Assembly: GCA_024137785.1 (NCBI GenBank)
Contig: JAHRHZ010000263.1
Coordinates: forward strand, 29,521,648 to 29,584,687
Direction: 5' to 3'
Length of the DNA: 63,040 nt
Source of the DNA: Ginglymostoma cirratum
Lineage: Eukaryota
Position 1 is the stretch's first letter. Each line of letters opens with the position of its first letter. Shown piece by piece: positions 11,024 to 56,889 of the stretch. Under the pieces are notes generated by a model that did not search any database, was not told the origin of the DNA, and worked only from the letters and a program-made list of their open reading frames with translations. The translations under genes and the position numbers were made by a program.

Positions 11024-11179
<156 letters not shown>

Positions 11180-16345: not shown

Positions 16346-16745
16346 NNNNNNNNNNNNNNNNNNNNNNNNNNNNNNNNNNNNNNNNNNNNNNNNNNNNNNN
16401 NNNNNNNNNNNNNNNNNNNNNNNNNNNNNNNNNNNNNNNNNNNNNNNNNNNNNNNNNNNNNNNNNNNNNNNNNNNNNNNNNNNNNNNNNNNNNNNNNNNN
16501 NNNNNNNNNNNNNNNNNNNNNNNNNNNNNNNNNNNNNNNNNNNNNNNNNNNNNNNNNNNNNNNNNNNNNNNNNNNNNNNNNNNNNNNNNNNNNNNNNNNN
16601 NNNNNNNNNNNNNNNNNNNNNNNNNNNNNNNNNNNNNNNNNNNNNNNNNNNNNNNNNNNNNNNNNNNNNNNNNNNNNNNNNNNNNNNNNNNNNNNNNNNN
16701 NNNNNNNNNNNNNNNNNNNNNNNNNNNNNNNNNNNNNNNNNNNNN
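16346..16745. other. Assembly gap (400 N), preceded by a Penelope-like terminus at about 16264-16345
   Basis: Run of N. The left flank gagatagtaggaactgccaatgctggagtc...ggccaagcagcatca matches the start of the element at 34651. Confidence 0.95.
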
Positions 16746-23387: not shown

Positions 23388-23461
23388 CGCATTTGCCTCT
23401 CCTGCTCCAACTCACTGCTCAGCTGCTCGAGCTCCGAGGACTCTCCGCGCACCTCCTCCAT
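23388..23461 (-). CDS. CCDC169: CCDC169 coding exon 1 (74 nt): MEEVRGESSELEQLSSELEQERQM(R)
   Basis: ATG at 23461-23459 in a strong context (aggATGG) and a CG|gtatga donor. Phase 2 fits exon 2. It lies in a CpG-rich patch, and the position downstream of SPART matches human synteny. Confidence 0.8.
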
Positions 23462-23598
23462 CCTCGCTCCCAGCCCCGCTTGTTACAGTCGTCACCGTGG
23501 CAACGCAATGTCATGTGACTCGCACCCGGAAGTCCCTTGTCTCCTCTCTGCGTGAAGTGTACGGCCCCGCGAAGTCTGTCATTCTGTGAGGAGTTGCT
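23462..23598. promoter_or_regulatory. Compact CpG-rich bidirectional promoter (CCDC169 and the novel plus-strand gene)
   Basis: RFX X-box GTCACCGTGGCAAC at 23491-23504, M-box/CLEAR-like GTCATGTGAC at 23510-23519 and ETS/GABPA CCGGAAGT at 23526-23533. Locally high CpG in a CpG-poor window, with divergent ATGs 137 bp apart. Confidence 0.75.
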
Positions 23599-23662
23599 AT
23601 GGATAGAAGGGAGCTATTGTCTGATTCTGCCAAAGAGTATGACAGGATGAAAGCCAATATAG
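23599..23662 (+). CDS. Putative novel coiled-coil microprotein gene, exon 1 (64 nt): MDRRELLSDSAKEYDRMKANI
   Basis: Strong Kozak context GCTATGG, open frame to a strong AG|GTAAGA donor (phase 1), directly downstream of the promoter motifs. Confidence 0.65.
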
Positions 23663-23926
23663 GTAAGAATGCATATTAAGGGTTACAGATATACTATGGT
23701 TTATTTGTAATTTCTCCTATTCTCAAGAATATAATATCGACTGACTTTTACTACAGACACTGCTGATGTTTTTAAACTTTTGCTTTCAGAGTTTCAATAT
23801 TTCATTTTCCTCTAAATTATTCAATGTGAGGGACATAAACTGGACAAGATATTCTAAATGAGACCTAATCAAGAATGATTTTGTGCTGTGTTGAATTTAT
23901 CTAAGAAATACATTCAAATTTTCAGG

Positions 23927-25161
23927 GATAACAAGGTGTAGAGCTGGATGAACACAACAGGCCAAGCAGCATCAGAGGAGCAGGAAAGCTGATGTTTCGG
24001 ACCTAGAAACCTTCTTCAGAAATAGTGGAGGGGAAGGGGGTTCTGAAATAAATAGGGAGAGGGGGAGGCGGATAGAAGATGGATAAAGGAGAAGATAGGT
24101 GGAGAGGAGACAGACAGGTCAAAGAGGCGGGGCTGGAGCCAGTAAAGGTGAGTGTAGGTGGGGAGTTGGGCGGGGGTGGAAATAGGTCAGTACAGGGAGG
24201 ATGGACAGGTCAAGGGGGTGGGATGAGGCTGGTAAGTAGGAGATAGGGGTGGGGCTTGAGGTGGGAGGAAGGACAGGTTAGGGAGGTGGGGACAAGCTGG
24301 GCTGGTTTTGGGATGCGGTCGGGGGAGGGGAGATTTTGAAGCTTATGAAATCCACATTGATGCCATTGGGCTGCAGGGTTCCCAATTGAAATATGAGGTG
24401 CTGTTCCTGTAACCTTCGGGTGGCATCTTCGGGGCACTGCAGGAGGCCTAGGATGGCATGTTGTCTAAGGAGTGGGAGGGGGAGTTGAAATGGTTCACGA
24501 TTGGGAGGTGCAGTTGTTTATTGCGAACTGAGCATAGGTGTTCCACAAAGTGGTCCCCAAGGACATTTTTCAAGGACTGCAACTCTTTCCCCCCACCACA
24601 GTGGTTGAAAGCGCCTTCGCCCACGTCTTCCGCATTTCCCGCAACTCATCCCTCACACCCCCTCCCCGCAATGACAACCAAAACAGGATCCCCCTCGTCC
24701 TCACATACCACCCCACCCAACCTCCAGATCCACCGCATCATCCTCCGGCAATTCCGCCATCTACAAACTGACACCACTACCAAAGACATATTTCCCTCCC
24801 CACCCTTATCTGCTTATTGGAAGGACCACTCTCTCCGTGACTCCCTCATCCACTCCACACTCCCCACCAGTCCCACCACTTCTCCCTGCAACCTCAAGAA
24901 GTGCCACACTTCCGCCCTCACCCCCATCCCAGGCCCCAGGAAGACCTTCCAGATCAAACAGATGTTCACCTGCACATCTGCTAATGTGGTATGCTGTATC
25001 CGCTGTTCCCGATGTGGCCTCCTCTACATTGGGGAAACCAAGCGGAGGCTTGGGGCCCGCTGTCAGCTTTCCTGCTCCTCTGATGCTGCTGGGCCTGCTG
25101 TGTTCATCCAGCTCTACACCTTGTTACCTCAGATTATCCAGCATCTGCAGTTCCTACTATC
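23927..25161 (+). mobile_element. Penelope-like retroelement (Neptune-like), truncated, with an inverted 5' arm
   Basis: ORF 24458-25165 encodes a Cys-rich linker (PCNLKKC) and the GIY-YIG motif VVCCIRCSRCGLLYIGETKRRLG. Positions 23927 to about 24555 are an inverted copy of the element's 3' end. Confidence 0.85.
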
Positions 25162-26289
25162 TTAAATTTTAAAACCTAGTTCTGCACTTACCCACAAGAG
25201 GAAACATTCTTTCCATATCCACCTTATCAAGACCATTCAGGATCTTGCACATTTTAATCAAATCACCCTTCGTTCTTCTGAACTCTAGTGAAAACCAGCC
25301 CAACAATGTCCTCGTAAGAAGAGGCATGACCAATGTTCCATCTATTTCTTTCCTGCTGAGCCCGGAGCTATGCATCAGCATGCCAATCTATGTGCGTGGG
25401 GCTTCTCAGCCTAGCTGTGCAACTAAGAAGTGACATTGACCATGGTGTCCTTTTGGGTTGGGGTGTTCTGAGAGGTACGTGCTTTGAGTGTTGCCAATCG
25501 ATCTGCTACAAGTCATTGTCGTCACTTGTAAATCTCACTGTCCTGATGTCTGAAGCTGCCATTAAACCATCACAACTATTAACTCGACTAATTCAGCCTT
25601 TTCTCATAATACAGAGGTGCATTTATACAGGAAAAATTATTTTACTTTCATGTGAGGATACAAATTTATGCAAAAGGTGTCTTTCTCTTTCCTGTTCGCA
25701 CGTTTTATTTTCATTCATTTTTACACACTGCTATGCTTAAAATTGGACAGCTGAGGCTACAACTGGGAAATCTTGAATCCATTTTGAGAAATAAACAAGT
25801 TCCGCAATGCTGACTTTTGTACAGGTTCCATATCTCTCGATCTGTATAGTCTTGCTCACCGTCAGAGGACAAGTTTTCCTTGCTCACTTGAATAAAGCGT
25901 AATCCAGGCCTTTTTATTGGCTTCTCTTGCTATTGCGAGGTGCTGGATTGTCTGATTGGCAGGTCTGCACCAGAGGAGGATATTAGTTCCAATTTAGCCA
26001 AACAGTTCATCAATACAATTCTCTCATTGCGAACAATTGTCCCACCAGGGACTGCGTCATCTAATCTTTGACAAGTTGCATTTGTGCTTATTATGTATAA
26101 ATAAGAATGTAATTCCAGATGAAGCATGATCTGATTTTGCAAAAAAGCAAATGAATATTAAAATTAATTACTTAATCAGTGTGCAAAGTTAACAAAGGAC
26201 AAAAATGTTAATTTTTATATTTAGGAATGAGAACTAAAAGTTATCTTAAAACAGCAGCATCCGGTTCATCATGGGAACAAACTAAGCTG

Positions 26290-28590
26290 CCATATTTTAG
26301 ATTCATGAGGTGCTGTTGACCATCAGTAGCAGCAGAATCGTATTCCAATACAACCTGCAATCTCATGACCAGGCATATCCTTCGACTGCACTGTTACCAG
26401 GGGATCAAGCCAAGAGATCAATCTGATTCAATGAAGAATGCAGGAGAGCATCCCAGGAGCAGCAGCAGGCATACCTAAAAGCAGGCACTCTACAAACAGG
26501 ATTACCCGCGTGCCAAACATTAGAAGCAGCAAGTGATAGACAGAGCTAAGCTCTGCAGTCCTGCCACATCAAGATATGAAGAGTGGTGGACAGTTACACA
26601 ATTTGCTGAAGGAGGAAGCTCCACAAATATCCCCATCCACAGTGAATACCCCAGCTCATCAATGCAAAAAATAAGGTTGAAGCATTCACAAAAAGCTTCA
26701 GCCAGAAGTGCCGAGTAATGATCCGTCTTGGCCTTTTCCAGAGGTTCCCAGCATCATAAATGCTGGTCTGCAGTCGATACAATTCACTCCATGTGATATC
26801 AAGAAATGGTTGGAGACACTGAATACTGCAAAGGCCCTGACAACATTCCAGAAATAGTTCTCAAGACTTTTATGCTCCAGAAACTGCCCCTTCCCTAGCC
26901 AAGCTGTTCCAGTACAGCTGCAATTTTGACATTTATCTGACAATGTGGAAAATTGCCCAGGTATGTCCAGTGTACACCAAAGCAGGAATGATCTATTCCA
27001 GCCAATTATTGCTTCGTCAGTCTACTCTTGATATTCAGTAAAGTGATTGGAAGGTGTCATCAACAGTGCTTTCAGGTAGCACCTGCTCAGTGACGCCCAA
27101 TTTGACTTCCGCCAGAGCACCCTGGCTCCTGACCTCATTCCAGCCTTGGTTCAAACATGGACAAAAGAGCTGAATTCCAGGGGTGATGTGAGAGTGACAG
27201 CCCTTGACATCAAGGACTCATTTTGCCAAATGTAGCATCAAGGAACCCTAGCAAAAGTGTAATGCATGGGAATCGGGGAGAATCCACTCTACTGGTTGTA
27301 GTCATGCCTGGTACACAGGAAGATAGTTGTGGTTGTTGGAGGTCAGTCATCTCAGCTCCAGAACATCTCTGCAGGAGTTCTTCATGGTGGTGTCCTAGGT
27401 TAAACCATCTTCAGTTGCTTCGTCAATGACTTTCCCTCCATCATAAGGTCAAAGGTGGGGATGTTCACTGACGATTGCAAAATGTTCATTATTCACAACT
27501 CCTCAGAAACTGAAGCAATCATGCCCAAATGCAGAAAGACTTGGACAATATCGTTTGCACCACACAAATGACAGGCAATAATCATCTCTAATAAAAGATA
27601 ATCTAACCAATGCCCTTTGATATTCAATAATGTTATCATTACTGAATCCGTCAATTATCAATGTCCTGGGGATTACTATTGACAGAAACAACTGGACTTG
27701 CCATATAAACACAGTGGCTATAACAGCAGGTCAGAGGCTGGGAATATTGCAGTGAGTATTGTCCCTCCTAACTCCCCAGTGCGTGTCCACTATCTACAAG
27801 GTACAAGTTAGGAGTGTGTTGGAATACTTCTCACCTTTCTGGATAAGTGCAACTCTGACAACACTCGAAGCTTGAGACTGTCCAGGAGAAATCAGTGCAC
27901 CTGATTGGCATCACACCCACAAATATCCACACCGTCTACCATTAATGATTAGTAGCAGCTGTGTACACTACCTACAAGATACACTGCAGAAATTCATGAA
28001 AGATCCTTAGACAGCACCTTCCAAACTCATAACTGCTTTTATCTTTTTATTCATTCATGGCATGCGGGCGTCACTGGCCAGGCAGCATTTGTTGCCTATC
28101 CCTAATTGCCTAGAGGGCAGTTAAGAGTCAACTATATTGCTGTGGGTCTGGAGTCACATGTAGGCCAGACTGGGTATGGATGGCAGTTTCCTTCCCTAAA
28201 GGACATTAGTGAACTAGAAGTGTTCTTCCTGACAATCCACAATGGATTCAAATTCCACCAACTGCTGTGGCTGGATTCAAACCCAGGTCCCCAGAACATT
28301 ACCTGGGTCTCTGGACTAACAGTCCAGCGATAATACCACTAGGCCATCGCCTCCCACTGGAAGCACATGAGCAGCAGATATATGGGAATAACAGCACTTG
28401 CAAGTTTCCATCCAACATATCACTTTTCCTTCAGTGTCATTTATCAAAATCCTAGGATTCCCTCTCTACAGCATGTGGACAGCCAAGGTGTAGGAAGGCA
28501 GTTCAGCACCATCTTCTGAAGAGCAACCAGGGACCAGCAATAATATGCTGATCCAGCCAGCAATACCCATGTCCCACGAGTGAATAAAAA
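26290..28590 (+). mobile_element. Degenerate CR1/L2-group LINE (RT region to 3' tail) with a nested insert at about 28045-28355
   Basis: RT motif remnants (gccaattattgcttcgtcagtctactc; gcccttgacatcaag, ALDIK; gggatgttcactgacgattgc, MFTDDC) and an A-rich tail at about 28582-28592. Confidence 0.75.
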
Positions 28591-29504
28591 AATGTCCAAA
28601 CTGTTGGGTCTTTCTTGAATATGAATACTGTCAGTGTTCAAAGGGGAAACAACATTTATGAAGAAACTTTGTACTTTTTTGATTGAATGGGACTTGTGTG
28701 TTCCCTTAAGCAATACCTAGTTCGTGGAGATAACCACATTGTAATATTTAATTCTCATTAGTCTTCAGCTGATCATCCTGATGATGAATAACTGTTCCCT
28801 TTGCTCATTAAAATTACTGAATAGGGTATTCAGTATCAGGTACTCCTTCCTCCTGCAAAGAAGTCAGACTTTGTTCTGCTCGTGAACCATTGGTGGAAAT
28901 TCAATGCAGCGAATATTGAGACCTTGGTTTAAATGAGCGATTTTAATGGAACATTGTTGCTCCGTTATTGAATTCCAAGATTCAATTAAGTGATAGAATC
29001 TGCAGTATTGGATGTGGGCCTTTTTATGATCTGCATGGAATTATATTGCAGGTACTTGACAAATAATGAATTTCATCCTGCATTTACTGTCCAAAGTATT
29101 AGCTGACTATATGCTTGGTTCGGTCATTATATTGTTCTACATACTAATTTAGCGTAGTATAATATACCCCTTCACTAAGCTGTTCTTGCTATAAATAAAT
29201 CTTATCTGGCACCTGGGTGGATATACAGTAAGTAGCAAAGATGTCAAATAACATTTTTCATCCTGAGAAGAGAGTCTCATAGAATCATTACATGAGACAT
29301 AATTAATATAAGGATATCTCACAGTCTCTCTCTCTCTCTCTCATGTTTGTAATTAATATAACACTAGAGTATTATATAAAAATGAGGCCGTGGTGTAAGA
29401 CATTAAAATGGATATGAATTATTCCCATATGCCCTGACCCAGTTTATCCCCTTCTTAACTTCATCAGAAAAGACTGCAGTCTTATTTCCCTACTTGATAC
29501 ATAA

Positions 29505-30650
29505 ACAAAGGAATGAGGAACAAAAGTAGGCCATTTGGTCCTTTGAGCCTATTCTGCTATTAAGTATTATCATGGCTGATCGTCCAACTGAGTAACCATG
29601 TTCCCACTTTTGCCCCATACCCTTTGATCCCTTTAGCCCTAAGAAACAGCTTTCCAGTGGCATTTCAATCGAATCACCACTCTCTTTTGGGGGAGAAATT
29701 TCTCCTCCTGTCAGACATAATGGGCCTACCCCATTATCCTTAGACTGTGACCCCAGTTCTGGACTCCCGCTCATTAGGAACATCCTTCCTGTGTTTACCT
29801 TGTCTAGTCCTTATAGAATTTTTGTAGATTTCTCTGAGACTCTTTCCCTTCACCCCACCCACCCCCCCAATCTTCTAAACTCCAGAGAATATTGGACCAT
29901 AAGACCATAAAATTTTGGATCAGAATTAGCCCATTCAGCCCATCGATTCTACTCTGCCATTCGATAATGACTGATATGTTTCTCAAACTCCATTCTCCTG
30001 TCTGCTCCCTGTAATTCTTGATCCCTTTACCATTCAAGAATCTATCTGTCACTGTCTTCAATATATTCAATGACTAGTCACCACAGAAGGCTGTGGAGCC
30101 AAGATTCACCAACCTCTGGCTGAAGAAATTCCTCCTCATCTCAGTTCTGAAATGCCAACCCTGAGGCAGTGCCCTCTTGTTCTAGTCTCTCCTACTAGCG
30201 GGAACATCTTCTCCGCGTCCACTCGATTCACACCTTCCAGTATTCTGTAAGTTTCAATCAGATCTCTCCTCATCCTTCTAAATTCCATCGAGAACAGATC
30301 CATAGTCCTTAACCACTCCTCATATGATGAGCCCTTCATTTCCGGGATGATTCTTGTGAACCTCCTCTGGACCCTCCAAGGCTTGCACGTCATTCTTTTG
30401 ATACAGGCCCCAAAACTGCTCTCAATATTCCAAATGCAGTCTGACCAGAGCCTTATACTGCCTCAGCTATACGTCCCTGTTCTAGTATTCTATGTCTCTC
30501 ATAATAAATGCTAATATTGCATTTGCCTTCCTAACTGCTAACTGAACCTGCATGTTAACCTAAACAGAATCCTGAATGACAAGCTTTGGAAGTCTGAAGC
30601 ATAAAAATTTTATTCTGTTTAGAAAATAGCCTATGCCTCTATTCCCGTAA
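29505..30650 (-). mobile_element. Stacked CR1-like LINE 3' fragments
   Basis: ORF 30136-30393 reads RVQRRFTRIIPEMKGSSYEEWL...RRDLIETYRIL...TRTRGH, the CR1 ORF2 C-terminus. Confidence 0.8.
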
Positions 30651-31419
30651 ATTTCTTTCCTCATACTGAAATTGGACAAGAATGACTTTCTTTGTAGATG
30701 TTGGTTTGAGATGCCTGTGAAGTGTATGGATTTTGTTTTTTTGCTGTTTGTTGTACAATCTTTTTCTAGACTAATATAAAGAATTTCGAGGCAGACATAG
30801 AGGTTGACAAAACTTTAATGGAGTCAACTTCTTACTGCAGCTACACGAACTTTTTCACTGCACTTTAAAGAACTAAGATGGATGCTCCATTATGTGATAT
30901 TGTCTTAACCAGTCCAGTCTCTCTTCTTATGTTAGCCCTGCCATCTCAGAAAAAAGCCTGATTAACTTTCCTGCATGCCCTTCACAGCCAGAACATTCCT
31001 CATCATCAGATAAGGAGATCAAAGTGCATACAGTCTACCCTCACGTGTGGTGTCACATTAATAAGAATGTATGAAATTTAAGCTATACAGGTAAATGGTC
31101 TTTGAGGCTGCTCTACCATCTAGTACCATCATGGGTTATCTTCCAATTCAATGGCATAGGAGATTAATGAATAATATTAACGATTTATACCAATTTTTAA
31201 AATTTCAGATTCCTGTCTTTGCATTTATAATGAAAACACTGATGTAAAGTTGTTCTGTAATTACATCGTCTTCTCAGTTGAGATGCTCTAACGCCACTTC
31301 TCCTGAAGATTACACTTGGGTTAACCTTCCCTTGTGTAATACAATGGAATAATAAATGTTACAGCTTTAAGAAACTAAAATGGCATTATGGTCAATATTA
31401 TATGTTGTTTCTATTGCAG

Positions 31420-31517
31420 AAAGACTTACTGAAGAATCTTCTCAGTTGGCCATGTATCAGAAAAAAATGGTGGAACACAATACAGTGCTTAAAAATCTCA
31501 GCCAGAATTTCAATCAG
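31420..31517 (+). CDS. Putative novel microprotein gene, exon 2 (98 nt): (E)RLTEESSQLAMYQKKMVEHNTVLKNLSQNFNQ
   Basis: tgttgtttctattgcag| acceptor and CAG|gtaacc donor. Open in the phase 1 to 0 frame required by exons 1 and 3, and located in non-repetitive sequence. Confidence 0.65.
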
Positions 31518-32159
31518 GTAACCCAAAACTGCAAATAGGAAGGCTACCCAAACCACACTATTTGAGGAACAAAGTGTTAGCCACAAGTTATACTGATCTA
31601 CTGCAGACCCTCTTTGCTCACACATTATTACCTCAACAACTTGCCTTGTACAACTAATGGGCATAATGCATGAGTATTATGCTTCTATTCCTGACCACAG
31701 ACATTTTGGAGGTATTTATAAAATAAGCTATAAATCTAGCTCAGCTATCAAGTTTCAACACACTATTTCAAACACTTTGGGAATTTATTTTTGAATGCTC
31801 ACATTGCTGACAGATAAAACTAGTACTTTGAACAGACGTGTATATTTCTGTCTGTCTTATTGGTCACCAATTTTTACTACTAGTGTGACTGACCTGACCT
31901 TTGTTATTCCTCAGCTGGATCTAAGGGGATCTCAGTTGGACGACTTCTCTATTTAAATACTTGTGCTGTGATACTATCTGTACTTAATATGACAACTCTT
32001 CCCCTCCTTTTCTTCCCTATTCCACATGAAATTTTTATATCTAAAAGCATTTATCAACTTTGAACCTGCTCGAGACGAGATACTTGCTATTTTATGATTT
32101 TCTAATTTTCTAATCCAGTAACTTACTCTTTTTCACCTGATAATTAACTTTTTCGTATG

Positions 32160-34650
32160 CATTTTATTAAGTAGGGTAAGGACGACTTGGCTGACTGGAC
32201 AGCATTTACTACCCATTCCCCATTTTTGACCTTTAGAAGATGATAGTAAGCTGCCATTTTGAACCACTGCAGTCCATTTAGTGTTGGTACACCTACATTG
32301 CTGTAAGGGAGGGAGTTCCATAATTTTAACCCAGCGTCACTGAAGTTGGGATGGTGAATTGCTTGGAGGTGGTCTTACAGGTGATGGTGTTCCCATGTAT
32401 CTGCTGCCCTCGAGGTGGTAGTAGTGGTTGTGGGTTTGGAAAATGTAGTGCGAAGTGCCTTGGTGAATTCTTGCAGTGCATCTTGTAAATGGTATGCACT
32501 AATATACATTGTGTCACTGGAGACAATGTTTGCAGAGTCAGCAGGTGAATTACTCACAACAGGATTCCCAACCTCTGACCTGCTCTGTAGTCAAAGTATT
32601 TATGTGGCTGATCCAGTTCAGTTCCTGGTCAGTGGTAACCCTCAGGATGTTAGTGAGGGAGTTTGTGATGTTAATGCCCGTTGAAGGTCAGGGGGTAACT
32701 GTTAGATTGCCTAACAGTTGGAGATCGCCATTGCCTGGCACTTGTGTGGTGCAAATGTTACTTTCCACCTGTCTGCACCAAGCCTGGACATCATCCAGGT
32801 CTTGTTGCTTTAGGACATGGGCTGCTTCAGTATGTAAGGAATTGTGAACGGTGTCGAACATTGTACGATCATCCGCGAACATCCCCACTTCTGACCTTAT
32901 GACAGAGGGAAGGTTGCTGATGAAGCAGCTGAAGACGTTTCGACCTAGGACACTGAGGGACTCCTGCAGAGATATCCCGAAGCTGAGACAAGTGACCCCT
33001 GACAATCACAACCACCTTCCTATGTGCCAACCAGTGGAGAGTTTTACCACCAATTCCTCATGATTCTAGTTTTGCTAGGTTTTCTCAATGACAAACTTAA
33101 TCAATTGTGGCCGTAATGTATGGTATGGTACCTGCTGTCTCGTCCCCTCTAGAGTTCAGCTCTTTTGTTCATGTTTGAACCAAAACTATAGTTGTGTTTA
33201 AAATAAGTAGCCCTGGGATGGGTATTAATAGTAGGTTGTTGCTGAGCAAGTGCTGCTTGGTAATACAATTGATGACGTCCATCATATGTTACTGAATATT
33301 AGGAGTAAATTAACCAAGCTGTATCTGGCTGGGTTGGAACTATCCTTTTTTTCATGTACTGGTCATACTTGGGCAATTTTGCCAAATAGGTGTGAGTGTT
33401 GTAGCTGTGCTGTAATAGCTTGGGGGTGGTGGTGCATAGCAAGTTCTGGAACATGTCTATTATTTTGACCCAGCAACAGTGAAGGAATGGTGATATATTT
33501 CCAAGTCAGGATGGTGAGGAGCTTGGAGGGGAACTTTCAGGTGGTGGTGTTCCTTTTGTATCTGCTGCCCTTGTCCTTCTACATCAAAGTGATTGTGGGA
33601 CCTCTGGAAGAGGCTGAGATGGATCATCCCAGACAGTTCTGGCTGAAGATTGGTGCAACTGCTCCAGTCTTATCTACCACTTACGTGCTGATCTCCCCCA
33701 TCAGTAAGGATGGAGATATTTGTGGAGCCCTCTCCTCTAATGAGTTGTTTAATTGACTATAATGGTTCAAAATTGAATATGGTAGAAATGCAGAGCTTAG
33801 ATCTGATCTGTTCATTTTGGAATCATTTAGTTCTGACTATCACTTGTGCTTATGCTGTTTGGCATGCAGGTAGCCCTGTTTTGCAGCTTCACCAGGTTGA
33901 TGCCTCATCTTTGCATATGCCTGGTTTTATTCCTGAAATGCCCTCCGCAACTCTCTGAACCAGGGTTGATCTCCTGTTTTAATAATCAGGCTAAAATGGG
34001 TGACATGCTGGACCTTGGGTACATTGTGTTGGAGTAAAATTCTGCTTCTACTGATGGCCAACATTGTCTCATTTAAAGCTCAGTCCTGAGATGCTAGGTC
34101 ATTTCAAAATCTGTCCCATTCTGCAGAGTAGTAGTTCCACAGGACATGATGCCAAGTATCCTTGATATGAAGACTGGATTTCAATTCTACAAGGACTGTG
34201 CAGTGACCTCTCTCTGACCAATACTGTCATAGATAGATACCTCTGCAACAGGCAGAGTGGTGAGGATGTTTCTGCACTACCTGATGTAGACCTAATCGAG
34301 CTGCTATATGCTTTAAGATTCAACCAGCTCAATCAGCATTAGTCAGCCAGTCTTGGTGATGGATATTGAAGTCGCCAATCCAAAGTACAAATTTGTGTCT
34401 TTACCACCCACTGTGCTTCTTCCAAATGGTGTTCAACATGGATAAGTACTGCTTCATCAGCCAAGGGCTGGTGGTAAATGGTAATCAGCAGGAGGTTTTC
34501 TCTTCTAGGTTTTGAACTGATGCCATGAGACATCATAGGATCCAGAGTCAATGTTGAGGAATGCAAGACAACTTCCTCCTGACAGTACACTACTGTGCCA
34601 CGTCTGGGTCTATCGTGTTGGTGACGATGCCTAGGACATGGTCTGTTATG
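32160..34650 (-). mobile_element. Degenerate CR1/L2-group LINE (same family as 26290-28590)
   Basis: ORF 32688-33005 contains FSCFISNLPSVIRSEVGMFADD...LQQDLDDVQAWC-like RT sequence. Endonuclease-like remnant NLLLITIYHQP lies in ORF 34339-34731. Confidence 0.75.
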
Positions 34651-36547
34651 GAGATAGTAGGAACTGTAGATGCTGGAGAATCTGAGATAACAAGGTGTAG
34701 AGCTGGATGAACACAGCAGGCCAAGCAGCATCAGAGGAGCAGGAAGGCTGATGTTTCGGGCCTAGACCCTTCTTCAGAAATGGGGGAGGGGGAGGGGGTT
34801 CTGAAATAAATAGGGAGAGAGGGGGAGGCGGATAGAAGATGGATAGAGGAGAAGATAGGTGGAGAGGAGACAGACAGGTCAAAGAGGCAGGGATGGAGCC
34901 AGTAAAGGTGACTGTAGGTGGGGAGTTGGGGAGGAGCTACGTCAGTCCAGGGAGGACAGACAGATCTAGGGGGTGGGATGAAGTTACTGGTAGGAGATGG
35001 ATGTGGGGCTTGAGGTGGGACGAGGGGATAGGTGGGAGGAAGGACAGGTTAGGGAGGCGGGGACGAGCTAGGCTGGTTTTGGGATGCGGTAGGGGGAGGG
35101 GAGATTTTGAAGCTTGTGAAGTCCACATTGATACCATTGGGCCGCAGGGTTCCCGACGAGGAGCTCGAACAGTTCATTCACTTCACCAATACCTTCCTCC
35201 CCAACCCTAAGTTCACCTGGACCATCTCTAATACCTCTCTCTCCTTCCTGGACCTCTCTGTCTCCATCTCTGGCAACCACCCAGAAACCGATATCCATTT
35301 CAAGCCCACCAACTCCCACGGCTACCTGGAATACACCTCCTCCCACCCACCTTCCTGCAAAAATGCCATCCCCATTCCCAATTCCTTCGCCTCCGCCGCC
35401 TCTGCTCCCAGGATGAGGCATTCCACTCCCGTACATCTCAGATGTCCTCATTGTTCAAGGACCGCAACTTCCCCCCATCAGTGGTCGAAAACGCCCTTGA
35501 CCGTGTCTCCTGCATTTCCCGCAACTCATCCCTCACACCCCCTCCCCGCAATAACAACCAAAAAAGAATCCCCCTCATCCTCACGTACCACCCCACCACC
35601 CTCCGGATCCGATGCATCATCCTCCGACACTTCCGCCATCTGCAATCCGACCCCACCACCAAAGACATTTTTCCCTCCTCACCCTTATCTGCTTTCCAGA
35701 GGGACCACTCTCTCCGTGACTCCCTTGTCCGCTCCACACTCCCCTCCAGCCCCACCACACCCGGCACTTTTCCTTGCAATTGAAGGAAGTGCTACACCTG
35801 CCCCTACACCTCACCCCCATCCCTGGCCCCAAGAAGACTTTCCAAATAACATCTGCTAATGTGTTATACTGCATCTGTTGTTCCCGTTGTGGCCTCTTCT
35901 ACACCGGGGAAACCAAGCGGAAGCCTGGGGACTGCTTTGCAGAACACCTACGCTCGGTTCGCACTAAACAACTGCACCTCCCAGTCGCGAACCATTTCAA
36001 CTCCCCCTCCCATTCCTCAGACGACATGTCCTTCCTGGGCCTCCTGCAGTGCCACAACGATGCCACCCGAAGGTTGCAGGAACAGCAACTCATATTCTGC
36101 TTGGGAACCCTGCAGCCCAATGGTATCAATGTGGACTTCACAAGCTTCAAAATCCCCCCTCCCCCTACCACATCCCAAAACCAGCCCAGCTCATTCCCAC
36201 CTCCCTAACCTGTCCTTCCTCCTATCTCATGCCCCACTCCCATCTCCTACCTACTAACCTCCTCCCACCCCCTTGACCTGTCCATCCTCCCTGGACTGAC
36301 CTATCTAACTCCCCACCTACACTCACCTTTATTGGCTCCATCCCTGCCTCTTTGACCTGTCTGTCTCCTCTCTACCTATCTTCTCCTCTATCTATCTTTT
36401 ATCTGCGTCCCTCTCTCTCCCTATTTATTTCAGAACCCCATCCTCCTCCCCCATTTCTGAGGAAGGGTCTAGGCCCGAAACATCAGCCTTCCTGCTCCTC
36501 TGCTGCTTGGCCTGCTGTGTTCATCCAGCTCTACACCTTGTTATCTC
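34651..36547 (+). mobile_element. Penelope-like retroelement (Neptune-like): inverted 5' arm, RT thumb, GIY-YIG and pseudo-LTR, with TSD
   Basis: EELEQFIHFTNTF..FTWTISNTSLSFLDL..KPTNSHGYLEYTSSHP (PLE RT C-terminus), PGTFPCN linker, and CSRCGLFYTGETKR..FAEH..VANHFNS..EQQLIFCLGTLQPNGIN (GIY-YIG). Frameshifted. Flanked by catggtctgttatg (34637-34650) and catggcctgttatg (36547-36560). Confidence 0.9.
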
Positions 36548-37619
36548 ATGGCCTGTTATGATTGTCAGGCTGTTGCAGTTTCTGGTGCCCTTGATCAGTG
36601 TCCAGTTGTGTATCCAATTTTCTGTCTTTCTTTATACAACCAGTTAAGAGTCAACCACATTGCTTACGGTTTGATGCATTTAAACCAAAGCAGGTAAGAT
36701 CAGCAAATTTTCTTCCCTCAGAGGCATTAGTAAATCAAATGGGTTTTTACAACAATCCACAATGGTTCCATTGACATCCTACGACTTTTAATTCCAGATT
36801 GTGAATTAAAACAAGCATTCAACCTTCTGCTATGGGTGGGATTCGAACACCGGAGATCACCTGCATCTCTGGTGACAATCCCACTATTCCATCACCTTTT
36901 ATAATTCCGTATTAAATACTACAGGGATTGTCGATAACTTTATACAACATACTGCTTTGATCACAGTTTATTGATGGTCCTATCCACTGCGTCTTTGAGC
37001 GTAGCAATTCAACTTGACCAACTTTTTTGATGTTTGCTCAGATGAAAAAAAGTGGCTTATAAATTTTTCACGAGACTGATATATTTCAAAAAAGCTGTCG
37101 GTGTGAGCTTGTTATTTTTTTGTATATTAAAACTTGAAATAGACTTTTATAAATGGGAATACATTTGTTCACCTATACAATTACTTCACTTCACTTCAGT
37201 AATCTTGCTCGTTTTTGTAAAAGACTCACATTCTAATTTAGCTTCTATATTATTATTTTTTCCCATTCTGGACATTAAACACAGCCTAATATTTAATATG
37301 CCTCCCTGATTATTTCATTACTCAAGATTAGATCTAGCAAAAACATTACTTCTGCCACCATTTCATCATATTGCTTCAGGAAGAATTGTACACCTTTTAG
37401 GAATTCCATTCCTTTTCTTAGTTTACTCCTTAATCATGAGAACGATACCTTATGTTCATTATTCCTACCCCTTCCTGAATTGTCAAACTTCTTCCCCTCT
37501 GGAATAGGCACAATGGACCGTGTGATCCCGGTCAGTGTTGTATCTGTGAATCAATTTCCTTTCTGCAGTCAGGTGAGGTGGGGGGGTCTGTACTACAGCC
37601 TTAAGGATTACTCAATTGT

Positions 37620-37862
37620 GTTGGCACTATTGCCAGAGCTAGAAAGTTGTGAATTCAAGCTCCACTTTGAGGAATTATGTGCAAAAATCCACGCTGATAG
37701 TCTAGTGTGGTACTATGGAGGACAAGAATGTTCCAGGTGCCAACTATTTAATTAAGACTCCAACTACCCTCTCACAGATGTAATAGATTCAAAAACAATT
37801 GCAAAGAGCAGCAGGAATGTCTACCATTGTGTTAGCTTATTTTTGCCTCTCAATCAACATCT
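37620..37862 (+). mobile_element. Ancient DeuSINE-like (SacSINE1/AmnSINE1-type) SINE remnant
   Basis: Diverged match to the recalled Deu-domain order: aaatccacgctga..gtggtact..ggag..ggtgcc..ccctctca..gatgtaa..gat..aagagcag..tttgcctctcaatcaacatc. Confidence 0.55.
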
Positions 37863-38348
37863 CTCTTGGCCTTTTTTGTAGTTGATGCTACTTGATCACT
37901 TTTCAGCATCCAGCATCCTATTTAGATTTGGTGGATGCTTTTAAAGCTGGAGGTCCTTTCCGCCATTTAATCCTTCCCATTTATCCAGGCTGGGGACCAG
38001 CACTAATGCATGCTGGCTTGTCTGTGCCAGTGGCTGGGTTCTTCATTGCCAACAAGTGACAATTGAGCCCAGACTTCCACTGCATTGGTACATATGTATG
38101 GTGAAGTATTGCAATGGTTTGCCACAGTTTTCTGTGGCATAGCTGATCAAGAGACTTGAACCTGAAGCTTCTGGCTCAGAGATTGCGATGCTACCATAGT
38201 ATCAGATGATCTTGGCTCTCCATCTGAAAAGCTGAAAAACATTAATGTAATATGGAATATCTTACTCTGTGCATCTTTACATGAATATGATCTTGTACAT
38301 GCAGTGCAGCTTAACAACTAAAGCAAACTAAGCTTTTATCTCTTTTAG

Positions 38349-38411
38349 GTACAGTTGAGACTGGAACGAGTAGCAGCTGTGAAGCCTGGTATCACAGGAC
38401 TGAACCAGTAG
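38349..38411 (+). CDS. Putative novel microprotein gene, terminal exon 3 CDS (63 nt): VQLRLERVAAVKPGITGLNQ*
   Basis: Branch-like ctaag plus a cttttatctcttttag| acceptor, phase 0. TAG at 38409-38411, with AATAAA about 160 nt downstream. Confidence 0.6.
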   Translation, partial: VQLRLERVAAVKPGITGLNQ

Positions 38412-38572
38412 TTTGTGGGGGAAAAACATGCCTGTAATGCAATGAAAGCCAATATTTCCAACCTATTCAAGATTGTAGTATTAACTTGAGCTTTCATGAT
38501 AATAGTTATGTTTGCTCAATGAGTGAATTTTCCTCCCAATTTGTGTAACTCAATTGTTTGTTTTCTCCATGA

Positions 38573-38578
38573 AATAAA
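38573..38578 (+). terminator. Polyadenylation signal AATAAA of the putative novel gene
   Basis: Canonical hexamer after an AT-rich 3' UTR-like stretch, followed by T/GT-rich sequence (tgtatttttcacatttgtatattt). Confidence 0.55.
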
Positions 38579-38859
38579 GACTTGAATGTATTTACACTGA
38601 TTTAAATGTATTTTTCACATTTGTATATTTAAGGCAACTTCAGCATATACACATTTCATAAATATTCCAATACTTTCATGGGATGTAGATGTCACTAGCA
38701 AGGATAGCGTTTGTGCCTATCCTTTTGGACATGTGGGAGAGGTAAAAAAGGGAAGAAATATTAATGGTTACCACTTGAAGCAAGATAAAAGTACAGATTG
38801 GCTAATCCAATATGTTGTATGCAACTGAGGTATGTTGAATATTCTCTTCACCTGATCCC

Positions 38860-54260: not shown

Positions 54261-55789
54261 GTATGATTTATCTAAGTCAACAATGTTGAACAGAAGAAAG
54301 TTTGATTCACCCGTTATTTAATGTAGGACCAACAGCCAAACAAGGCCTTCATAGTTATGAAGTTTAGGATGGACAGTGAAAAAGAAAAGCATGTATCTGG
54401 AAGTTAACCACATACTAATAACTTCACTGATCAGCGTAGAGATAGGATATGTGGGTTACAATGAAGGAACCTTGAGGCATACCACAAATATCCATGTACA
54501 TCAGGGAAAAGAATCTCTCTCAGGAGATATATTGAGCATTTTGGGACCACAAGATGGAAGCTGGGAGAAGTACCAGAGATGCAGGAGTGTTTCACATTGC
54601 TCTTCTTATTCAGAAAAGAAATCCATGTTAGTATAACAAACTGCAGTTTAAAAAGCTAGTAATGACACTGACCAGAGTTTAGGAGGAATGGGTTTAAGAG
54701 TCCATGCAAGAGGTAGTGAAGAGCAGTTTGTGACTTAGCTTGCATTGTATGATAACCGATCTGATAAGGAGAAAGACTGCAGCTATCATAAAAGGGCGGA
54801 AAATAACAGCTGTGATCACTCAAAGAAAAACTATTTAGGTTGTATTTCTAATTTATTCTGACTAGTTTATGTTTAATAGGTCACAAAATTCATTAAATTC
54901 ATTGGCTTGAGCCAAATTTATGCATTAACCTTTTGAAAGGACAAACTTATCGAATGCCATTGGCACACTGGAACACTTGTAGTTATCAAATAAACAAGTC
55001 GTAATTGCTGTAGATTTAGCTGAAAATCTCCTTGGATTGTTAGATAAAAGTTAGATTCACACTAATTCTCATTCAAGCAAACTGTTTTTACAATCAAAGT
55101 TATTTTTAACATTTTTAATTTTTAGCACAGTTGTGACTAGGTAGATGTGGAGACAAAGACAATGTCCACATTTAACAACATCTCAAGGGAGGCCAAATAT
55201 TCAATATCCCAACGTAAGAGTTAAATCCATTTAATGGCACTTCACTATAAACTACTTCCTGAGTTTTCTAATTCCAGTCTTAAAAACAATTAATAAAAAA
55301 GATAGCTTGAATTTAAAGAACTGAAAATGATATCCATGATTTCTTCATAGGTTTTCTACATCAGGGAGTGTGTATTCTAACTGTATATTCTAGATTTAGC
55401 TTTCTTATGCATTTGCTTAAACAAAGGGATTTAGTGTGGGTCAACGTGTAAGACTTTGTCTTGCCCTTAATCCTTATTTTCTCTTCAGCTATTCACCAGT
55501 TGCTACTTGAGTGAGAAATTTACCCTCAGTAAAATTTCCTAACAGCTAAACAGAATATACCTGGTAAATGGTTCAAAGTTCTAGCCTTTGTGTATGATGA
55601 AGAATAAAATAAACAAAATAACTAAAAATTCTAAGCTTCTATTATACAAGACTTCCACAATCCCTTCAAATTATTATTTTGCAAAAACATTGTGAATTGC
55701 AGTACAAATTGTGAAAATAAATACATATAGTAGGCATCTGAACCAAAAATGTTAACAAATAAATTTTCTGCAATAATCTAAAAACATAC

Positions 55790-56599
55790 CTGCAGAAAGG
55801 AAGGTGGCCGGTTTTGTGCTGCATCAGCATCTGAATCAGAAAATGTCACAATGCGGAGGTATCCTGGATAGGAGGGTGCACTCACTTGCCCATCAGGTGT
55901 TACATAGAATATCTGCACTCCTTGCTCAATTAAAATGAGCTCACATCCATCTATACCAAGTGATTCCAATGGAGGAGGATGGGTCCTTTGCCCAATAGCA
56001 TTACCACCAACAACAGCAAACTCGCCAGATTCAGTTCCATAGGAAATGGTCCTGTGTCCTTCTGCGGCCTCGGGCGTGTATACTGGGGGCAGCTCATTCA
56101 ATGCACACGGAACATCTGCTGACAAACTAGCCGCTATGTTCAAGGAGCTTCCATTGGTAGTTGGTTTCACATTCATGGCAGAAGATTGAGTGTTTGACAA
56201 CATTGAAGATCTCTCTTCACAGGGTATTGGTACAACTGGATACAGTCTTGACTCCGCTTTTGAGTTATCAGGTCCTGAAGTTTCAGAAAATTGGTTTGGC
56301 TGACTAGATGCCATTGAATTGTCTTCATGTTCCAAAATAGATAACCTTGTTTGTATATTACTTAATGTTGCACACATCTTATTCTGCATTTGACGGGCTA
56401 CGTCCCACTGGGGACCTGTACATTCTCGACTATTTGAAGGAATATTCAATCCTTCAATTAGGTGCCTCTTTCCTTGCCTGTAATACTGCTTTGCAACTTC
56501 TTTTTGACCACATTCATCTGCAGTGAGCCCTTTATTAACAAAGGTAAATGCCTTTTTATATTCCTCCTTAATGCGATTAAGACTTTCAGCTGCATTCAT
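55790..56599 (-). CDS. SPART: SPART coding exon 1 (810 nt, 270 aa): MIT domain, PPxY motif and start of the central domain
   Basis: The exon starts at 56625 after a tttttgttag acceptor, with ATG at 56599-56597. IKEEYKKAFTFVNKGLTADECGQKEVAKQYYRQG (MIT), PPVY, and GVQIFYVTPDGQVSAPSYPGYLRIV match spartin. CAG|gtatgt donor. Confidence 0.97.
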
Positions 56600-56889
56600 A
56601 GTTGCAACGTTGCAGTGGTCCAAACCTAACAAAAATAAAGAAATACATCTAAATGAAATGTTTTGACAGATTTAAAACCAAAGGAGCAGAACTTGCATGC
56701 AAGTATAACTTAAAGCAAATGCAGCAGTTTCCCACCTTGTACCAGGAATTACTTTCCGAATTTTATCTCATGAAGGTTCACAAATGGTCAGAGCATTGTG
56801 AATGCCATAAAGATAGTCAGGTCAAATATTTTGTATGTTGAATTAGATGCAATCCAATTATACAGAGTGCTATTACATCCAAGCCCCAA

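Follow-up and report, generated by a model that had tools for sequence, protein, structure and literature searches.

A transcribed 74-codon gene and its relatives

The window analysed here is a 63,040-nucleotide stretch of the Ginglymostoma cirratum genome (GCA_024137785.1, contig JAHRHZ010000263.1, positions 29,521,648 to 29,584,687, forward strand). Between 23599 and 38411 it carries a three-exon gene for a 74-residue protein, which an earlier note had likened by eye to Dad4, a subunit of the fungal DASH/Dam1 kinetochore complex. Animals are considered to lack this complex. The gene is real, transcribed, conserved and without a meaningful name. Its product is not assigned to any DASH family; in the wider sense a DASH-type subunit would be a grey-zone lead, and one that points more toward the Hsk3/Dam1 pair than toward Dad4.

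Splicing of three + strand exons (23599-23662, 31420-31517 and 38349-38411) gives 74 codons and a stop, with GT donors and AG acceptors at both introns. A 452-nucleotide contig (contig 9 of run X3) joins all three exons (23541-23660, 31418-31515 and 38347-38580); its joints are those of the exons offset by 2 nucleotides, owing to a repeated AG. Exon 1 is also covered by 11 poly(A) reads of run X15. The transcript evidence for splicing is the X3 contig; none of the runs is recorded as an RNA source, run X16 contributed only 7 reads, and the two splice joints were absent among the 15 of 290 joints listed. The span given earlier for the peptide is confirmed, and the ten residues numbered in it all lie at the positions given. 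The gene reads as follows.

23541..23598, + strand: 5′ untranslated part of exon 1, minimum extent (start of X3 contig 9)
23599..23662, + strand: coding part of exon 1, 64 nucleotides, codons 1-21 plus 1 nucleotide, phase 1, with invariant Tyr14 (splice sites, X3 contig; Tyr in 10 of 10 relatives)
23663..31419, + strand: intron 1, GT-AG, phase 1, repeat-rich (splice sites, X3 contig)
31420..31517, + strand: exon 2, 98 nucleotides, phase 0, with Leu24, Leu31, Leu48 and invariant Phe52 (splice sites, X3 contig, relatives)
31518..38348, + strand: intron 2, GT-AG, phase 0, repeat-rich (splice sites, X3 contig)
38349..38411, + strand: coding part of exon 3 with the stop, holding the best-conserved block V-Q-x-R-L-E-R-V-A-A-x-K-P (splice sites, X3 contig, relatives)
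38412..38580, + strand: 3′ untranslated region, AATAAA at 38573-38578 (X3 contig)

At 23631 the window has C where the X3 contig and 11 of 11 X15 poly(A) reads have T; the difference is silent because it falls on the third position of an Ala codon. The same high-copy repeat occurs once in each intron (23930-25160 and 34660-36550), and both copies are heavily covered by reads.

The closest protein matches of the window come from sharks; exon 2 as query gave two shark proteins of 73 residues. The profile of these two gave six matches among 1.84 billion representatives, one of which (P0010, a bacterial repeat protein, E 1.3e-4) was discarded as chance at 22 bits. A seven-sequence profile then gave 32 matches among 2,957 candidates: 11 from named species (two sharks, three frogs, a salamander, three bony fish and two turtles), one vertebrate-like and 20 belonging to a multicopy group. 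Relatives are defined here by sequence similarity, not by gene order, and none of the 32 bears a meaningful name, all being unnamed or misnamed. No mammal, bird or lizard match was returned by this search, which does not prove absence because it depends on shared five-residue words. Of 73 positions, the window protein shares 65 with P0004; with the full-length proteins of bony vertebrates it shares 29-36 of 72-74. The invariant residues of the vertebrate-type set are Tyr14, Leu31, Phe52, Gln56, Arg58, Ala63 and Ala64. No paper about the gene, or about a DASH subunit in animals, came up in a literature search that had most subscription papers outside its scope.

The multicopy group (P0011, P0016-P0018, P0020-P0023, P0025-P0033 and P0035-P0066; ENA/Logan) consists of near-identical relatives of 61-70 residues in single open frames. 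They reach 49 bits against a vertebrate-only profile, as against at most 18 bits for bacterial look-alikes. At least six of the entries lie on one 984,561-base contig and some appear broken; the group looks like a tandem or mobile-element-linked expansion. Searches of viral and JGI metagenome contigs did not find it, and its single match in prokaryote genomes (L112) was set aside as chance. Two turtle entries have peculiarities of their own. P0019 (Platysternon megacephalum) is named at its source 'glucose-induced degradation protein 8-like', a name backed by none of its listed Pfam families, and P0034 (Lepidochelys olivacea) has five additional residues exactly at the exon 2/3 junction, probably from an alternative or mispredicted acceptor.

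A predicted helix and its likeness to DASH subunits

AlphaFold2 predicts one helix over residues 2-64 (mean predicted local distance difference test score 87.9), a single long helix being common to most coiled coils. The product is thus predicted to be a single amphipathic helix, about 60 residues long, plus a short tail. Foldseek found no match for the model, and the best 50 hits of VIA-align, all at Z 6.4-6.9, were tied generic coiled coils. A Pfam scan of the three separate exon peptides gave 0 matches, and ESM Atlas returned no family for P0004 or P0015.

We scanned 34 full family sequences with Pfam, 13 of vertebrate type and 21 of the multicopy group (P0011 by the matches listed). The controls came from 301 bacterial genomes, in which the best chance matches of the profile were 33 look-alike helices; 30 of these were scanned, leaving out one duplicate, one near-duplicate and one short piece, and three of the 30 scans rest on the best 25 families. 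HMMER omits most matches above about E 0.1.

The Arapaima protein has DASH_Dam1 as its top Pfam match (E 2.3e-4; 21.3 bits against a cut-off of 26.6), and weaker matches to this family (E 0.09-0.18) were listed for one frog and two turtle proteins. All these matches, from three lineages, fall in one ungapped register over profile positions 2/3-36 and end at the invariant Phe. Some DASH family was listed for 5 of the 13 vertebrate-type sequences, two of the five being isoforms of one frog gene and two being turtle proteins, as against at least 2 of the 30 bacterial look-alikes. In the multicopy group, DASH_Dad3 was matched by 20 of 21 members (E 0.016-0.13), and one member matched DASH_Hsk3 in register (16 bits, E 0.016, residues 3-25 on profile 1-23). 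The DASH_Hsk3 cut-off (PF08227, 24 bits) was not reached; that member is the only in-register match among the 34 sequences, and one further match is out of register. Single members also match Dad1 and Duo1; these matches use different registers, and we gave them no positional weight.

For a more direct comparison, 111 fungal Dam1 loci from metagenome contigs were reduced to 65 distinct cores, a narrow sample of two tight fungal groups. Their alignment retrieves solved Dam1 chains from the PDB but no Hsk3 chains. In hhalign the family aligned with these cores without gaps and in the same register, at a score of 17.9 (10.4 for the reversed family), which was equalled by 2 of 300 full shuffles. 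Single family members, which are not independent of one another, outscored the controls against Dam1 (medians 11.6 versus 9.5), and 10 of 11 spaced family positions recur in 56 of the 65 Dam1 cores compared with 1 of the 30 controls.

Hsk3 is named as the paralogue of Dam1 in a survey of the complex (PMC9998035), and the profile-profile E between the two is only 0.22-0.7 (PMC9998035, Table S1), which shows that genuine DASH paralogues can also score in the grey zone. A diverged Hsk3 would therefore give a Dam1 signal as weak as the one seen, and so would chance. Judged by eye from the entries in the supplement of that survey, Hsk3 proteins are small, and open their helix with Tyr-x-x-hydrophobe in 24 of 34 entries; hydrophobes occupy +3, +7, +10, +17, +31 and +34, and +38 is His, Tyr or Phe (PMC9998035). 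By eye, our family matches this without gaps in size, in the opening Tyr (10 of 10 relatives) and in the spacing to the aromatic residue. The Tyr opening is not exclusive to Hsk3; fungal Dad3 opens alike, and the C-terminal motif of Dad3 is wanting in the family. An Hsk3-like placement would draw on weak scores and on spacing compared by eye.

A number of results weigh against a DASH assignment. None of the 34 sequences reaches a DASH gathering cut-off, no DASH family was listed for the shark proteins, and CUX1_N outscores DASH_Dad3 in the multicopy group. Control helices give E values of 1e-5 to 3e-4 with coiled-coil families to which they do not belong, and one control matches DASH_Dam1 in the family's own register (E 0.034). 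The hhalign probability of family versus Dam1 is 6-8%. The score of 17.9 was reached by 13 of 300 shuffles that retain the hydrophobic pattern, so most of the Dam1 signal is helix pattern. The 11-position pattern was defined on the family, whose sequences are not independent. Gln56 and Arg58, among the best-conserved C-terminal positions, score negatively against Dam1. The Dam1 block F-L-Y-G-x-x-M-N-A-x-C-V has no counterpart in the family either, the column scores there being mostly negative. Against Hsk3, compared by eye, the Phe at +42 (F-M-A-A motif) is Gln in 12 of 12 relatives, and +14 and +21, large hydrophobes in Hsk3, are small or Gln in the family. Finally, PDB sequence searches (A1, A2, A4, A5 and P0015) showed no DASH, BORC or BLOC-1 chain among the matches listed, which for one search were the best 60 of 71; this blank is weak because the Dam1 profile likewise misses Hsk3 chains there.

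Dad4 in particular is not supported by the sequence comparisons. The likeness drawn by eye is real in that the PMC9998035 supplement contains the yeast fragments used for it in its S. cerevisiae entry, and a gapped alignment with that entry gives 14 identities by eye. DASH_Dad4 (PF08650, cut-off 29.8 bits), however, was not listed for any of the 34 family sequences (for P0011, among the matches listed), whereas one bacterial control matches it at E 0.0042. Ten residues had been named as matching Dad4. Eight of these are largely kept in vertebrate-type relatives: Leu24, Val55, Leu59, Glu60 and Lys66 in 11 of 12, Gln56 in 12 of 12, and Asn42 and Pro67 in 9 of 12. The other two are not, Asn20 being shark-specific (2 of 11 relatives) and Arg23 recurring in 1 of 12, with Lys in the other 11. 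Lack of conservation, named beforehand as refuting Dad4, is in these alignments found by half.

A true Dad4 orthologue, which would be a sub-case of the DASH reading, would have lost four codons near the second exon junction, and we regard it as very improbable. In its favour, beside the 14 identities, intron 2 offers a place for the gap of about 4 residues in the earlier alignment, the family conserves V, L, E, K and P in its C-terminal part, and filamentous-fungal Dad4 fits by eye without gaps at E-K-L, Asn42, Phe52 and Gln56 (supplement entries of PMC9998035). The Dad4 hallmarks are nevertheless wanting. By eye, the N-terminal Pro of x-P-H is present in 39 of 43 Dad4 entries and N-Y follows the aromatic residue in most of them (PMC9998035), but the family has neither x-P-H nor the subsequent conserved R-I (Arg at +2 in 3 of 10), and its invariant Phe52 is followed by N/D-Q/E-V rather than by x-N-Y. 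Dad1 and Dad4 find each other at a profile-profile E of about 1e-17 (PMC9998035), and a Dad4 orthologue should be easier to detect because Dad4 is well conserved. Scans of viral contigs for Hsk3 and Dad4 motifs gave 0 matches.

The divergent neighbour and the sites between the start codons

The 74-codon gene lies head-to-head with another gene, which we take to be CCDC169. The surrounding features are listed here; the sites were each the only match of their pattern in the window.

11029..11139, − strand: internal CCDC169 exon (splice sites; DUF4600, E 2.5e-13)
23388..23461, − strand: probable first coding exon of CCDC169, head-to-head with the 74-codon gene (no Pfam match for this piece)
23491..23504, no strand given: X-box-like site between the two start codons (also present in 8 of 100 shuffles; the pattern was picked with the site already in view)
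23510..23519, no strand given: M-box/E-box-like site GTCATGTGAC (20 of 100 window shuffles hold one)
23526..23533, + strand: ETS-type site CCGGAAGT (34 of 100 shuffles hold one)
55781..56671, − strand: tail-to-tail neighbour, presumably spartin (SPART); open frame with its first large coding exon (MIT domain, E 0.003)

The piece at 23388-23461 is assigned to CCDC169 because the DUF4600 exon lies downstream on the same strand, and DUF4600 is assumed by us to mark CCDC169. The names CCDC169 and SPART both presume the human CCDC169-SPART order. The phase implies at least one further exon between the first CCDC169 exon and 11029-11139, and a 400-base assembly gap (16346-16745) lies within the CCDC169 span.

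The two start codons are 137 nucleotides apart (23462-23598, CpG-rich), and both 5′ untranslated regions and a shared promoter would have to fit into this interval. The consensus sequences that we assumed for the X-box-like and ETS-type sites are those of RFX and ETS factors. The M-box/CLEAR-like site claimed earlier is present at 23510-23519, but its occurrence is within chance for the window. The X-box-like site and the promoter in common with CCDC169 may hint at expression in ciliated or germ cells.

Candidate origins and comparison with known systems

We consider it most likely that the 74-residue protein contributes a strand to a heteromeric bundle of parallel helices. The bundle that would fit best is of the DASH/Dam1 arm type; within it the protein would belong, in diverged form, to the Hsk3/Dam1 pair and most probably be Hsk3-like, rather than Dad4. 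To this reading, Dad4 included as a minor share, we give a probability of roughly 40%. If so, jawed vertebrates outside mammals and birds would keep part of DASH beside Ska, perhaps, to speculate further, in a microtubule-linked assembly of ciliated or germ cells, as could be predicted from the promoter shared with CCDC169 and the X-box-like site. In a tentative and slightly less probable form, sharks, some bony fish, amphibians and turtles would keep a hidden set of small DASH/Dam1 genes beside Ska, this gene being the Hsk3-like one; such genes would have been missed because they are tiny, spliced and unannotated. The survey text (PMC9998035) describes searches of predicted proteomes, including those of a chimaera, two fish and Xenopus, that gave no animal DASH subunits, and it warns that DASH genes, being short, are easily missed.

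The protein could instead be a coiled-coil microprotein specific to animals and without kinship to DASH or BLOC-1/BORC, paired with a helical partner, possibly CCDC169, in ciliated or germ cells, its DASH likeness being the common pattern of short amphipathic helices. This is a serious contender, if on balance a doubtful one, and it accords equally well with every number given above. Every library score is below its cut-off and in the range of chance helices, the pattern-preserving shuffles reach the Dam1 score, ESM Atlas gave no family, and the conserved C-terminal block has no counterpart among the DASH features compared; the distance between the start codons would suit CCDC169 as the partner. 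What it leaves to coincidence is that DASH_Dam1 was matched from three lineages in a single register, that DASH families recur in 5 of 13 vertebrate-type sequences as against at least 2 of 30 controls, and that length and N-terminal Tyr agree by eye with Hsk3.

BORC or BLOC-1 had been put forward earlier as the alternative to DASH. In the form that we weighed, the protein would be a shortened Snapin-like subunit (of the BLOC1S7/BLOC1S6/KXD1 triad) that can replace another subunit in tetramers of BLOC-1 or BORC, controlled by MITF/TFE via the M-box-like site and perhaps acting in pigment-cell organelles. Snapin carries a Q-x-R-L motif, which would explain the invariant Gln56 and Arg58. Snapin_Pallidin was listed at E 0.003-0.004 for 3 of the 13 vertebrate-type sequences; these matches use the C-terminal half of the profile (44/52-88) and take in the family's best-conserved block. 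BLOC1_2 was listed once (E 0.0095). Precedent exists in that subunits are exchanged between BORC and BLOC-1 (PMC12846789) and that Snapin has paralogues (PMC11513930). Yet all three matches, out of 34 sequences, are bony fish at 18.0-18.4 bits, far below the 29.6-bit cut-off (PF14712), and these three score about as well with Nuf2_DHR10-like. The Snapin profile goes unmatched over its first half, BLOC/BORC families turn up in at least 4 of the 30 chance helices, and the M-box-like site does not exceed chance. We consider this origin unlikely.

A vertebrate subunit, if true, would overturn the view that animals are without DASH. The complex would have survived into animals and could be studied in frog or fish, in meiosis, cilia or sperm, and the mutual replacement of Ska and the Dam1 complex would become testable in an animal having both. 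Even without a link to DASH, the locus adds a conserved, transcribed and unnamed vertebrate gene family, with no mammal or bird match in these searches.

Among known proteins, Snapin/Pallidin (PF14712) resembles the family in that its C-terminal half aligns in three bony-fish sequences, and differs in its unmatched first half, in scores far below cut-off and in the lack of matches in other lineages. Dad4 (PF08650) has a similar length of about 72 residues and, by eye, E-K-L, Asn42, an aromatic residue at Phe52 and the terminal K-P as in fungi; the family differs from it in having no Pfam match, no x-P-H, no conserved R-I and no N-Y. The Dam1 core helix (PF08653; PDB 6cfz_H and 8q84_I) shares the same ungapped register, ending in L-N-x-S-F, whereas the family has neither the F-L-Y-G-x-x-M-N-A-x-C-V block nor the long extension found at the C-terminus of most Dam1 proteins. 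Hsk3 (PF08227) is likewise a small single-helix protein with an opening Tyr, the same ungapped spacing of hydrophobes and an aromatic residue or His at +38; the family, by contrast, stays below the 24-bit cut-off, has a conserved R-L-E-R-V-A-A-x-K-P tail and occurs in animals that have Ska.

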